A DNA stretch of 62,985 bases, counting the filler, from Octopus bimaculoides (Eukaryota): the NCBI RefSeq assembly GCF_001194135.2. It is 5 parts of 4 records of this genome, joined end to end, with 100 filler letters (N's around TTAATTAATTAA, not from the genome) between each part and the next. Parts side by side here need not be neighbours in the genome. Positions count along the whole stretch, not along the records: positions 1 to 14,452 come from NC_068987.1; positions 14,553 to 37,318 come from NC_068988.1; positions 37,419 to 45,317 come from NC_068987.1; positions 45,418 to 55,232 come from NC_068996.1; positions 55,333 to 62,985 come from NC_069005.1. One strand, written 5' to 3'. This document shows positions 13,018-60,668 of this stretch, in pieces. Position 1 is the first letter of the stretch. Every line of letters begins with the position of its first letter. The position numbers and the translations under genes are program-made. The notes below the pieces were generated by a model. That model saw nothing but the letters and a program-made list of their open reading frames with translations. It was not told the origin of the DNA and made no database searches.

Positions 13018-13546
13018 CATGCATATTAGCGGTTGTACGCACTTCCCTCATCCAAGCTAGAAAAGTCTCTGCACCCAGCGGATGATCCAGTCACTCTCTC
13101 AATACAACTACCCTTAGAAATTGCATTTATATACCATAATCCACTCCACCTCCCAACACTCTGGAAATCAGCTGATTAGTTGGAACCCCACCAGTGTTAA
13201 CTACTCCTGGACACATGTGTGCTTGACTCTTGAGGCCTGTTTGAAATAGGTCGGGCAATGATTGAAACTATCCTTCATCATTAATATAGCAAAAAAATAT
13301 CCAGTGCTTAAGTTCATGCATTTCGTTCAATTATGTTTTGTGTTGAGGAGGATGTCTCGGCAACGAGCAATTCATGCAACATGTATCTAAATTCACTCCC
13401 CAACATCAACGACAGGGTGACGTACAACCAGTGAAACAACACCTACAATGTCAATATTCAAAAGCGTGTGTATGTGTGAGATGAGGATGAAACATCGCTG
13501 TGAAACATATGTAACCTGGATCTTATCTATTCTGTTCCTTAACTCT

Positions 13547-13583
<37 letters not shown>

Positions 13584-14327
13584 AGACCTTATCTTAAATG
13601 CTTTCGGGATCTATAGAATTAGTAGCACCTGGGCACTTGGGTTCGACGTAATCCACTTAATCCGCTCCTCCGAAGTTACTGGACTTGTACTAAAATTTGA
13701 ACCAACCCCTATGTCTAAAAATGCAATCAGTTTGCTTAAACTGTTATTTGTACTTAACGGAAAACGCTTTAACTTTCAAATCACCGTAGTTAAGTCAACA
13801 CTACTTATTAGTTGCCTTATGCGCGTCTGTATGTATAAGAACAGTTACACATAAAACAGTACAATCATACAAATATATATGCGTACAAACACTTGCACAT
13901 TTACATATATATGTTTTGCCCAGCGTAAGAGTAAAGTTGTGAGTGATTGAGGAAGATCGAACTGCGCATGCACTATACTAGTACTTATTCTGCAGCTGCT
14001 GTGAGGACTATAATAATGTGTAATAATCTACCTTACTCACGGTCTCACCGTGCCGTATCGTCCAGAGATGTAAACCAAGACCTTATGATCGTGAAACATA
14101 AACGTTATTCACTTGGCCAAACAATCTGAATGTCTTAGTAAAAACTTGAATTATGATTGTTAGAAGCAAAATATTGGACGAATATCAGATGTAAAGTTGA
14201 CATGATGTTAATTAGTATTAAGTGCCAAAGGTTCAACAGGCTAAATGTGAATACTTAAGAAGTAATTTAAGGATTAGATCTATATATATATATATATATG
14301 AAATATTATATTGGGAAAAGTTCCCAA

Positions 14328-14398
<71 letters not shown>

Positions 14399-14452
14399 AT
14401 CTTTCAATATATGTCTGTCTGTCATTCTCTCTCTCTCTCTCATACACCCCCC

Positions 14453-14552
14453 NNNNNNNNNNNNNNNNNNNNNNNNNNNNNNNNNNNNNNNNNNNNTTAA
14501 TTAATTAANNNNNNNNNNNNNNNNNNNNNNNNNNNNNNNNNNNNNNNNNNNN
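14453..14552. other. Assembly join spacer (44 N + TTAATTAATTAA + 44 N)
   Basis: The 12-mer at 14497-14508 gives stops in all six frames; the same construct recurs three more times. Confidence 0.92.
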
Positions 14553-15145
14553 TATATATATGTGTGTGTACATACATACATATATGATGGCCGTCCACTC
14601 TTGACCGAGGAAGACCATTGCCGACGTTCAGGAACATTCTGCGCTTTAGTACTAACTTACATTTTGCATTTACGGCTCCGTTGTTGGCTAATGAGCCCTG
14701 CTACACACACATGAGCATCCACACTGTTTCTGTCAGTTAAATTCCCTCCACTCACAAGGCATAAGGCATTGTTTTGCCCGGGGTTATAAAAAGATGTTTG
14801 GGCACTGTCATGGTATTAGCTGTCAGAAGCGAAAGTAGAAAAATCTAACTAAACAAGGAATGTTACTGCTGGTTTGAGTTGAAATCTGTTTCTTTGGCTA
14901 CTGACTGGCCGGAGCTATCTATCTATCTATCTATCTATCTATCTGTAAGAGAACAGAATTAGAAATAGAATTGTTGTAGAGTTTCGTGGGTTTTTTTCTT
15001 CTTTTCAATGAACACCGCATTTAATTTAGCAATCGCGAATATGTAAGTGTTGACATTAAAAGTAATATTCATTTATTACTATGGGTGAATGATCCACACA
15101 TACTCACAAACACAAATTAGACGGTTGACAGTGGTTCCATTTATA

Positions 15146-15261
15146 CAGGGTGTCCACAAAGTCTGGGTACACGGAGTAAATATAAACAATTAAATATAAG
15201 AAATAATAATTTCTTAAAGTATGTGTTAATCCCCATGTACCCAGACTTTGTGGACACCCTG
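15146..15261. mobile_element. Tc1/mariner-type MITE (116 bp)
   Basis: TIR CAGGGTGTCCACAAAGTCTGGGTACA (26 bp perfect) at both ends; TA on each side (15144-45, 15262-63). Confidence 0.92.
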
Positions 15262-15840
15262 TACTATAAAGTTTTAATAACTGAAAAGTCCTTTATGTCG
15301 AAATCCTCACCTATCTACCATTTGTGTATATATATTTGCAAAAGCGATGGACTACTAATTTCCATGAACCAGACACTGCGCAGAAGAAATAATAAACATT
15401 TGTTCNNNNNNNNNNTACGGAAATGCATTTTCTAATTTGATAAATTCTACGGAAACAAACGAAGGTGGACGAGTGATAGATAGATAGAGAGATAGAGGGG
15501 GAGAGAGAGAGAGAGAGACAGACAGACAGATAGCTCCGGCCAGTCAGTAGCCAAAGAAAGATTTCAACTCAAACCAGCAGTAACATTCCTTGTTTGGATT
15601 TTTCTACTTTCATTTCTGACAGCTAATACCATGACAGTGCCGATGTTTGCCCAAGGTGGTGTGTTATGGTATTGAACCAAAAACCATGTCGTTACTAAGT
15701 GATATTGTTAACCACACATCCATACTCGCAGAGTATTTTGTTTTTCTTTGTCTTAGCTAGAAGTGTGACAACGCCAAGGCTCACACAATGTCTGGAAACA
15801 CACTGACAAAATATTTTTTCAATCTACATCTTCTATCCAG

Positions 15841-15959
15841 GATTTCCCCGGACAGTTTTGATTCCTCCACAGAGAAAACATGACAGGTGGAAACGAATGC
15901 GAGATGTTATGACAAGGGTCGTCTTCGTGTTTACAAAAATCGAACAGATCATTACAGAG
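15841..15959 (+). CDS. Candidate internal coding exon of an unidentified host gene (xFPRTVLIPPQRKHDRWKRMRDVMTRVVFVFTKIEQIITE)
   Basis: Acceptor ttttttcaatctacatcttctatccag, donor GAG|gtacga, one open frame over 119 bp of non-repetitive sequence. No homology recognised. Confidence 0.38.
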
Positions 15960-16457
15960 GTACGAAGATGTAAAGACTCAATTTAAATGTCAATATTTGT
16001 TCATACATCTGCTTGTAAATAAACAAAACAAGCAGCTAAACTGATATATTGATATGAATATATCAATGCAAATATGAAGAAGACTATTAAAAGAGGAAAT
16101 GATGCAAATACAAGCCAGCAAACAACAGCAACAACGATGTTAATGCTCATGTATTCGTTGCATCATTAAAACAAATTTATGAGGTAGTCATTACGTAGTC
16201 ATTAAAGCTGATAGAAATAGTCAGTAAATTTCCCTCAAATCAAATTACATGCTACTGTCTTAAAGAAACACACATTGGAAAATAAAGACTCTGATTTCTG
16301 ACAGAAAAGCAGGGATAGCCATGGCTGAAACAAATTTGATCATAGGTTTCTCCGGTTCGTTATGAATAACTGATAAGTTTGTTAGTCATTTACTATTAGA
16401 GTCCAGTTAATGGTGGAATTGGTACACATTGTCAGTCAAATTGTTAGGTATATTTAA

Positions 16458-17087
16458 ATGATGATGACGATGATAATGATGATGATGACAATGATGGTGA
16501 TGACGATGATGATAATGATGATGATGATGATGATAATGATGATGATGATGGTAACAACAACAAGAGNNNNNNNNNNNNNNNNNNNNNNNNNNNNNNNNNN
16601 NNNNNNNNNNNNNNNNNNNNNNNNNNNNNNNNNNNNNNNNNNNNNNNNNNNNNNNNNNNNNNNNNNNNNNNNNNNNNNNNNNNNNNNNNNNNNNNNNNNN
16701 NNNNNNNNNNNNNNNNNNNNNNNNNNNNNNNNNNNNNNNNNNNNNNNNNNNNNNNNNNNNNNNNNNNNNNNNNNNNNNNNNNNNNNNNNNNNNNNNNNGA
16801 TGATGATGACAATGATGGTGATGACGATGATGATAATGATGATGATGATGATGATAATGATGATGATGATGGTAACAACAACAAGAGCAATGATGATGAC
16901 GATGATGATATAACTTGCAAATGTAAGTGAAATGGAAAATGAGGTGAAGGACAACAATGATGATGATGGCATCAGCATCAGCATCACCAGCAACAGCAGC
17001 AGCAGCAGCAGTAGTAGTAGCAGCAGCAGTGGTGGTGGTGGCAGTGGTAGTAACATCATCAGCATCATCATCAGCAACAGCAACAGC

Positions 17088-59153: not shown

Positions 59154-59769
59154 TATGTGTGCGTGTGCGCGCGCGTGTGTGTGTGTGTGAGTGTGTGTGC
59201 GTGTGTGTGCGTGGGGTGTGTGAGCGTGCGTCTGTGTGTGTACTTATGTATGTATATATCTTATATATACCTATGTGTGTGCATATATATACACACATAC
59301 ACACATATATAAATATATATGTGTGTATGGGAGTACGTATATATGTGTGTATGTGTATATGTGTATATGTGTATATGTGTGTCTACGTATATGTGTGTGT
59401 ATATATAAAAGATCCAGTGAGATATGAGGGAGAATTTGGATGCTATTTCTCGTAGACCGAGTTACTACATAGAGGCATTCCCCCGCCCTCAACGTTGGGT
59501 GGTAACAGTAGTAGCAGCATCTCTCAGTGGGTGATCACAGCTAGGGCAGAGAGGGTGGGTTTTGTAGCATAAATAGCACTTGTATTAACAGACTAGCTGC
59601 CACCGCCATCGCCTCTACCACCACCGCCACCACCACCACCACCACCACCATCACTACAACCACCATCAACACCACTACCACCAGTAACGGCAACAGCGTC
59701 AAAACAAAAATACATATCTTTTAAACATTGGCACAGAGCCACGAATCATTCGTTGTGTGGGAGCAAGGG

Positions 59770-59990
59770 AGGAAATAAGGCGCGCGTTGTTTAACAGACT
59801 ACAGTATTCGGATGGTTATTTTACTGACCCAGAAACGTTAAAAGAAGGGCGCAGTGAATTATAAAGATCCCACCACATCCCGTACTTGTCTTGTAGCATA
59901 TTTTAGCAACACACGGAAAGGATGAAAGCAGAAGTCAGCCTCGGCTAAGATTCGAACTAAGGACCAGAATAACTTAATATAGCAACCTTG
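59770..59990 (-). mobile_element. SINE family C, strongly diverged
   Basis: GAAAGGATGAAAGCAGAAGTCAGCCTCGGC..ATTCGAAC block. Confidence 0.6.
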
Positions 59991-60262
59991 TGTTAGTCCG
60001 ATGTTGTAATAGTAAATCTCAAGACCGCCGGCGCAATTCGAACTCGCGTATTAAACGGTGACAACTGATTAGTGCAATGCAACAGGTTCTGTTGTATATC
60101 GCTCCAATAATGCTAGTCTGTGTTCTAAACGTGCTAATAAGGCAAAAGAGTTGCGCGGGACGTACGCATGCGTCGTAAGACGCTTGCTTCCCAATCGCCT
60201 TGTGAGTGAAATTTGTAGACGGAAACTGAAAGCCTGTCATGTATACATACGTACTTACAAAC

Positions 60263-60323
<61 letters not shown>

Positions 60324-60346
60324 CAAGCAGGCAGACAGACAGACAC

Positions 60347-60377
<31 letters not shown>

Positions 60378-60564
60378 CATACATACATACCTGTGCAGCC
60401 GTTAAACCAGGCACGATTTTTTTCTCTACTTGGTTTCTCCCCACCTCTGCCCTTTTCTTTCCTCATTACTTCCTGTAGAGAAGCGTAAACGCGAAACGTC
60501 AAAGACTCTTCTATTTTCCTTGAGCATCACGCTAATACTCTTTGTACATACATACATACATACA

Positions 60565-60600
<36 letters not shown>

Positions 60601-60624
60601 TATATAGGACAGTCAGTTGTCATA

Positions 60625-60664
60625 ATAGAACTCAGAGTTTCAAATGCCGGAGCATTTTCATCGG

Positions 60665-60668
<4 letters not shown>
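60625..60668 (-). ncRNA. Compact minimal hammerhead motif (44 nt, CCGAUGA core)
   Basis: AUAG-CCGAUGA-AAAUGC(UCCG)GCAUUU-GAA-ACUCUGAGU-U-CUAU. Confidence 0.65.

Follow-up and report, generated by a model that had tools for sequence, protein, structure and literature searches.

Hammerhead ribozymes of type SGC and type CSG (HRIMA-1 and variants; PMC10085705) carry all the hammerhead core letters in a non-circularly permuted order. In type SGC the cleavage site comes first, then GAAA, then CUGANGA; the core is pseudoknotted, a short linker connects stems I and II, and a helix joins the other strands of these two stems. CUGANGA runs directly into its stem II strand, and cleavage has been shown. 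Hammerhead motifs of the type I kind are described as massive in metazoans (PMC4209133). Among the Penelope-like elements (PLEs), the Naiads were reported without canonical hammerheads, some of their ends being labelled 'HHR_half_core' (PMC8557442).

Here we analysed 62,985 nucleotides (nt) of Octopus bimaculoides DNA (NCBI RefSeq assembly GCF_001194135.2; hereafter the window), five joined stretches with 58,862 non-N bases, microsatellite-rich and of 33-35% GC. A preliminary description had seen in it a dense set of minimal hammerheads, five complete and others as relics, from several Penelope-type families. The motifs are real, but they do not form one locus, the window being five separate stretches, four of them contig-placed (C7, C8, C16, C25), and their density was compared with that of the shuffled window. 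We consider it likely that all these motifs come from Penelope-like retroelements and their short non-coding passengers, of which they would be the decayed 3' ends, and that the families found at 45910 and 54515 carry a self-cutting ribozyme of Naiad-type elements. The searched genome comprised 2.34 Gb in 145,327 contigs. In the DNA searches of it the best 40 candidates per query were scored; this applies to all family alignments below and biases them toward query-like copies.

A proposed split-core fold in families E and F

The motifs at 54515 and 45910, previously taken for type I relics, belong to two repeat families (E, with 2143 first-look candidates, and F, with 3161) of another topology. 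No CUGANGA precedes the GAAA in either; the order is cleavage site, GAAA, CUGANGA, as in type SGC. Reading them as type I, II or III hammerheads was rejected because the family alignments lack such pairing. From the 5' side, the first half consists of one strand of helix P2a, the hairpin P5, the 5' strand of stem II, one strand of helix P4, the 3' strand of stem III, UH and the 3' strand of stem I. After a short linker follow the 3' strand of stem II, GAAA, the 5' strand of stem III, a linker, the second strand of P4, the 5' strand of stem I, CUGANGA and the second strand of P2a. The CUGANGA block (block C) is not continuous: beyond A9 the strand pairs with an upstream one to form P2a, and the chain enters G10.1 from P5.

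In this split-core fold, CUGANGA, GAAA and UH would be surrounded by stems I, II and III in the usual hammerhead manner, with the short linker and P4 connecting stems I and II at their far ends. Past A9 the backbone would leave the core and enter P2a, where the RNA ends, and hairpin P5 would lead it back into the core at G10.1. Provided that stem III is full, a monomer could cut itself after H17, and unit-length RNAs might then be released from tandem transcripts. The fold is predicted to work like type SGC without being a member of that class as defined. It shares with it the block order, all core letters, the pseudoknotted core, the linker and the interaction helix; in the split core, however, the stem II strand of block C lies at the 5' side and two extra helices stand between A9 and G10.1. 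A further difference is that cleavage was shown for the published ribozymes and is predicted for the split core. That E and F are nevertheless plain type-SGC ribozymes, the strand after A9 pairing directly with the one before G12 and P2a and P5 being incidental, is very unlikely: such a direct helix is possible in F (four pairs, two of them wobbles), but in E it has no pairs against six with the upstream strand, and the upstream stem II, P5 and P2a vary with their pairing kept across six families. A box C/D kink-turn reading of E and F was set aside, as their majority sequences hold no second CUGA.

Both window copies are decayed (Table 1). The E copy keeps 6/6 pairs in P2a, 4/8 in P5, 5/6 in stem II (the 10.1-11.1 pair is broken), 7/7 in P4, 5/5 in stem III and 6/6 in stem I, and the F copy has one mismatch in five of its six helices. 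The majority sequences of E and F match a descriptor of all six helices, which none of 20,000 core-fixed shuffles of each did and which had 0 matches in 150 window shuffles. A third family, H (2575 candidates), surfaced unsought in a flank, and across six families (E, F, H, J, K and the Naiad family N described below) 175 of 180 cells are paired and 26 of 30 positions have changed on both sides. By blastn, E has no match to any of the other five, and E and F could not be aligned by sequence with MAFFT. CUGANGA, GAAA, UH and the G10.1-C11.1 pair are present in all eight parsed sequences, and are intact in 16/22 copies of E, 15/21 of F and 16/25 of H. As expected of a hammerhead, stems I, II and III adjoin the core and covary, in an alignment fitted to structure; the core letters are fixed in the eight parsed sequences, N7 is free, and H17 is A or C, never G. 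Variation within E falls at N7 and H17, and one stem I pair is flipped from T-A to A-T in 3 of 16 parsed copies, a change carried by about 40% of RNA-seq reads at each of the two positions. Unaided, RNAfold predicts P2a, P5, P4 and stem III in E, and P2a, P5 and stem I in F.

At the genome scale, the pattern CGAAA-N24-26-CUGANGA has 12,034 matches, compared with 1,998 for the reversed pattern and 2,379 at a spacing of 30-32, an excess of about 9,700. Among the first 30 matches, 11 parse above all 250 nulls, and several others are 5'-truncated family copies or chance. Almost no credence attaches to the idea that every motif is either a chance match or the dead remnant of an ordinary type I hammerhead, with nothing new in it. 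The window copies are indeed decayed, and Rfam returned no hammerhead family among the best 150 of its 193 window matches, nor in five small loci; but the shuffle controls, the five-fold excess at one spacing and the covariation across families refute this explanation for the families, and it holds only in that individual window copies may be inactive.

Two further observations concern these repeats. Family H, as seen at L095:2010-2200 (contig C3, minus strand), is young, with 95-97% identity, the 3' end lying about 79 nt past the motif in most copies. Some pattern matches, such as that at L335, represent one more recurrent family, in which GAAA and CUGACGA keep this spacing and which the parser did not fit; it may be another permuted variant.

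A probable split core in Naiad elements

By eye, the consensus ends of Naiad_Obim and Naiad_Ovul (PMC8557442, File S5) have the split-core fold, and the 3' end of Naiad_Obim matches family N. A short pattern derived from this fold has 220 exact matches in the genome against 0 for the control. A reverse transcriptase (RT) fragment upstream of one pattern match was used as a query, and the top 20 of its 149 matches after the query itself were fetched; in 12 of these 20 Naiad-type loci the split-core fold lies downstream of the RT on the same strand. At another Naiad-type locus (L368) the endonuclease lies upstream of the RT. Family N has the N-terminal GIY-YIG domain and the (TA)n target of a Naiad, with an RVT_1 match (E=2.2e-5) that lies below the curated cut-off. 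The basic split-core match was absent from 30 Neptune-like loci (0/30) and 25 Poseidon-like loci (0/25).

Inspected by eye, 14 published Naiad consensus ends include four with an intact type-CSG hammerhead, two with the split form and one that is ambiguous. The type-CSG ends are in the records printed before Naiad_Hcon, Naiad_Hpol, Naiad_Asuum and Naiad_Lpol (PMC8557442, File S5), which by the order of File S1 would be three nematode elements and one spider element. Type CSG and the split form share one wiring and differ by a circular permutation. This points to a route by which the latter may have arisen: the intact type-CSG hammerhead of other Naiads may have been circularly permuted through tandem or circular RNA.

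Naiads and the split-core families are alike in their (TA)n targets, partial tandems and inversions, and N shares the endonuclease upstream of the RT. Families E, F and H form partial tandems in a few loci, with periods of 596-760 nt, show inversions, and have 3' ends in microsatellites; they differ from Naiads in that no open reading frame (ORF) was found and in their units of about 600-760 nt. These three families are probably non-autonomous passengers, and may be mobilised by Naiad proteins: an element-encoded RT and endonuclease would prime inside the RNA at AT-rich sites and insert the copies into (TA)n. An RT frame downstream of one F copy was rejected as the partner of F, as it has a C-terminal endonuclease and no second F copy. 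That frame (L253:2570-3637, minus strand) is a Penelope-like RT (RVT_1, E=5.5e-10) whose C-terminal Cys-linker endonuclease is unlike those of families B and C below.

On balance, we favour the view that Naiads use non-circularly permuted hammerheads, of type CSG in several animals and, in the octopus, in a form opened between A9 and G10.1 by a four-way junction. The octopus form would cut as a monomer and would be present in some ten thousand copies from at least six families, including ORF-less passengers, which would make it the most abundant pseudoknotted hammerhead known from any animal genome.

Type I hammerheads of the window

The five motifs described as complete type I hammerheads have their cores at 19063 (+), 36232 (-), 60664 (-), 46444 (-) and 18829 (-). 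The order is present in all five, but three copies are damaged; relative to their own families, only 19063 and 36232 are undamaged. The C3 claimed at 46444 is a U. Stem II is mismatched at 18829, a motif that does not satisfy the descriptor and that lies in the inverted arm of the insertion that holds 19063, and loop II at 60664 is shorter than in most copies of its family. Their excess over shuffled sequence is borne out: a strict descriptor finds 3 CYGANGA matches against 0.025 per dinucleotide-shuffled window (0/200 shuffles reach 3), and a wider type I descriptor finds 5 against 0.17, equalled by 0/200 shuffles. The five represent four repeat families, A (with two arms), B, B2 and C. H17 is U, generally regarded as the poorest cleavage site, in three of the five, and C in 15/30 copies of B and 27/29 copies of A. 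All five have a palindromic stem III with a loop of at most one base, and the type I motifs are predicted to cut as dimers, a behaviour linked to such a stem III (PMC4209133).

Some of the proposed relics had to be redrawn. At 13473 only the 3' half (13495-13548) is repeat-homologous, the proposed upstream core being unrelated DNA. Position 35464 falls in loop II and was rejected as the core of its family, D. The core of D stands about 80 nt ahead of GAAA; in the window it is found at 35082 (-) and, in mutated form, at 35412 (+). The relics at 13473 and 35464 are type I hammerheads whose loop II is long, of families G and D respectively; in D, CUGANGA is found in 13/20 parsed copies and a Cys-linker endonuclease fragment lies upstream in 1/25 loci. 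Two features had been overlooked in the preliminary description: at 60827 (-) there is another type I motif, and positions 24508-24768 hold a further piece of F. The first, of family M, sits in a 160-bp fold-back insertion whose best copies are 93-99% identical over the 90-nt core. At 10285 (-) and 10050 (-), CUGANGA is followed by a short hairpin and GAAA without stem III and UH; these are possible older relics.

The Penelope link and the multiplicity of families are supported by the repeat families themselves and by the ORF links of B and C. B is the 3' end, or pseudo-long terminal repeat (pLTR), of an endonuclease-bearing PLE with a Cys linker (Neptune-like). Its copies share non-coding sequence that reaches as far as about 770 nt upstream of the motif. 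Two B copies are adjoined by a GIY-YIG frame with a Cys linker. In a search with this frame, 13 of 30 endonuclease loci carry the B ribozyme downstream in the same orientation and 5 carry an inverted copy upstream; one locus (L250) has a 545-residue RT-linker-endonuclease frame that ends 540 nt before the motif. B2 is a sister family with compensatory changes in stems I and II, beside which no ORF was found. In the window, C is a 5'-truncated Penelope/Poseidon-like element, a GIY-YIG remnant followed by the minimal hammerhead, with a short inverted piece at its 5' end; at loci L078 and L252 RT and endonuclease lie upstream, L252 having a 314-residue frame followed by the C motif. B and C show the canonical layout of endonuclease-bearing PLEs, namely RT, C-terminal GIY-YIG and a pLTR with a type I hammerhead, their protein motifs being identified by eye; Pfam gave only a sub-threshold GIY-YIG match on these frames, and no match on the long ones. 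The Neptune and Penelope/Poseidon labels follow from the presence (B) or absence (C) of the Cys linker, as in PMC8557442, and not from an RT tree.

Known type I hammerhead tails and families B, B2, C, D and G have in common the order of blocks, the palindromic stem III, an extra base at stem II, and a prevalence of solo truncated copies and opposite-strand pairs 100-700 bp apart; D and G differ in their loop II of 45-60 nt. The motifs were described as mostly without an adjacent ORF. Inside the window this is so, but B and C follow ORFs elsewhere, and an ORF-less tandem unit was demonstrated for A only.

Family A (1003 and 1472 candidates with two queries) has a unit of 474 nt, 32% GC and a longest ATG frame of 58 codons, with best copies 95-99% identical. 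The set comprised 59 loci, 47 of them non-overlapping, which gave 69 arms (at least 84% identity over at least 50 nt), their sampling being biased by the two queries. Sixteen of the 69 arms are longer than one unit and 3 span two ribozymes, so that type I hammerheads stand in consecutive units. Head-to-head arms, as in the window, occur in both orientations in 22 of the 47 loci. The 5' ends are scattered around the whole unit, the 3' ends concentrate at two places, some 150 and 245 nt beyond the cleavage site, and of 44 3' ends 33 run into TA repeats and none lies within 10 nt of H17. We take A for a young retrozyme-like passenger with predicted self-cleavage. That it is merely the pLTR of an autonomous element whose ORF-bearing copies escaped sampling is unlikely. 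Only the best 40 candidates per query were scored, and B, too, seemed ORF-less before the protein search; yet the previous unit lies upstream of the ribozyme, two ribozymes stand one unit apart in 3 loci, unit junctions are crossed in 16 arms, and no ATG frame exceeds the 58 codons.

Like A, metazoan non-LTR retrozymes are ORF-less, AT-rich tandem units with one type I hammerhead each (PMC7229834; bioRxiv 10.64898/2026.07.22.740005). A is unlike them in its 474-nt unit, dispersed 1-2-mers, Penelope-type inversions and TA targets, and in that no abundant RNA was seen. In the Poseidon element of Anolis, the RT starts inside the RNA and both strands of AT-rich DNA are cut (PMC11167929), which fits the ends and arms of A, although that mechanism was shown in vitro and in another clade. 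The clustered internal 3' ends and TA junctions of A, as in that Poseidon system, suggest that its copying too may be primed internally where the DNA is AT-rich, with a circular or an uncut tandem RNA as template.

The type I motifs are of known kinds and, taken by themselves, would mean only that another host shows a familiar pattern. The proposal that they are undescribed for cephalopods is weak for this type, as 235 Hammerhead_1 matches are listed for the giant squid (PMC6962438).

Table 1. Hammerhead-bearing repeat copies, in window coordinates
Feature	Position	Strand	Landmarks
Family E, decayed copy	54481..54603	+	H17 54546; GAAA 54563; CUGANGA 54591
Family E helices P2a, P5, II		+	P2a 54481-86/54598-603; P5 54487-524; stem II 54525-30/54557-62
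Family E helices P4, III, I		+	P4 54531-37/54577-83; stem III 54541-45/54566-70; stem I 54547-52/54585-90
Family F, decayed copy	45864..45986	+	H17 45928; GAAA 45945; CUGANGA 45974
Family F helices P2a, P5, II		+	P2a 45864-69/45981-86; P5 45870-903; stem II 45904-08/45940-44
Family F helices P4, III, I		+	P4 45910-15/45961-66; stem III 45923-27/45948-52; stem I 45929-34/45968-73
Family F, 5'-truncated copy	24508..24768	+	GAAA and CUGANGA blocks only (core 24567), with 3' tail
Family A, left arm	18631..18949	-	core 18829; H17 18783; stem II mismatch
Family A, right arm	18955..19191	+	core 19063 (C4 variant); GAAA 19097; palindromic stem III; H17 19109; runs into assembly gap
Family B	36075..36251	-	core 36232; GAAA 36194; H17 36182; both ends in (TA)n; 2008 candidates
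Family B2	60600..60668	-	core 60664; H17 60629; loop II shortened; 261 candidates
Family C	46330..47050	-	core 46444 (U3); 4-nt palindrome; H17 46410; 5468 candidates
Family D, left arm	34934..35145	-	core 35082; GAAA 35003; long stem II and loop; stem I of 2-3 pairs only
Family D, right arm	35348..35680	+	core 35412, mutated; GAAA 35491; ends in (TA)n
Family G	13495..13548	+	3' half only; GAAA 13502; H17 13513; truncated in loop II; 297 candidates
Family M	60740..60900	-	compact type I hammerhead; core 60827; GAAA 60802; H17 60793; 428 candidates

The window holds other features. A 242-bp repeat has two copies (54893-55134 and 61738-61979), 90% alike, on different window stretches. A short frame at 52474-52722 (+) with two C2H2 zinc-finger-like motifs adjoins an assembly gap. 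The Rfam miRNA matches were rejected as microsatellites.

RNA reads, catalysis and meaning

Three raw RNA-seq runs of the same species were searched, 6% of each being read (11.5-12.9 million reads per run). Family A drew 124-226 reads and family E 452-660. The two directions were about equally represented, and most reads continued into unrelated sequence. This is what passive read-through of scattered copies would give; it is compatible with cleavage and circles as well as with their absence, and circles may be lost from such libraries. At L008:1365-1838, in all three runs, T>C on the plus strand leads the differences seen in the RNA reads, at 17-26 places per run (A>G on the element strand). 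It could reflect A-to-I editing of fold-back copies or family variation.

It seems to us improbable that the split-core fold, though derived from a hammerhead, has lost catalysis and is retained as a structure that the element's RT and endonuclease recognise or use for priming, set a constant distance from the 3' end. In most copies of E, F, H and N the motif does stand some 60-120 nt ahead of the (TA)n junction, no read ends fall at H17, insertions of A cross H17 intact, with none of their 44 3' ends close to it, and functions other than cleavage are allowed for in PMC4209133. The conservation, however, obeys catalytic rules in the eight parsed sequences, from the fixed core letters to the absence of G at H17, and integrated copies that cross H17 would also be expected from circles or uncut multimers.

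Several points weigh against a self-cutting Naiad ribozyme. The full descriptor is passed by only 6/20 loci of E and 2/20 of F, and RNAfold favours other folds for H and N. The alignment across families was fitted to structure, and the search itself forced the pairs G10.1-C11.1 and A15.1-U16.1; F, J and K are relatives, 71-80% identical, with J and K each represented by a single copy, and P2a is weak in N, with three pairs, a mismatch and a wobble. In seven of the 14 published Naiad consensus ends inspection by eye revealed no such fold, and 65 loci of E, F and H with 1.5-kb flanks yielded no Naiad ORF. Reads are few and equal in both directions, with no pile-up of read ends at H17 for A or E, which fragmented libraries may be unable to show; in Xenopus, one of nine retrozyme dimers cleaved (bioRxiv 10.64898/2026.07.22.740005). 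Eckert et al. assume that the blocks are uninterruptible (PMC10085705), and an opened junction between positions 9 and 10.1 had no precedent in the literature searched.

In that literature, the core insertions shown in PMC3088659 are of 1-2 nt only, the term 'type-SGC' appears in the original paper only (PMC10085705), and the split-core layout was not found; subscription journals lay outside its scope, as did the supplementary files of PMC10085705 and the bioRxiv preprint, files that could hold eukaryotic examples. The fold provides a new descriptor for genome searches, and constructs of 125-140 nt would hold it. If the self-cutting reading is true, nature has opened a block of the hammerhead core that was supposed to be indivisible, non-circular permutations would shift from metatranscriptomes into animal retroelements, and the apparent absence of ribozymes in Naiads, compared with the other Penelope clades, would be explained.

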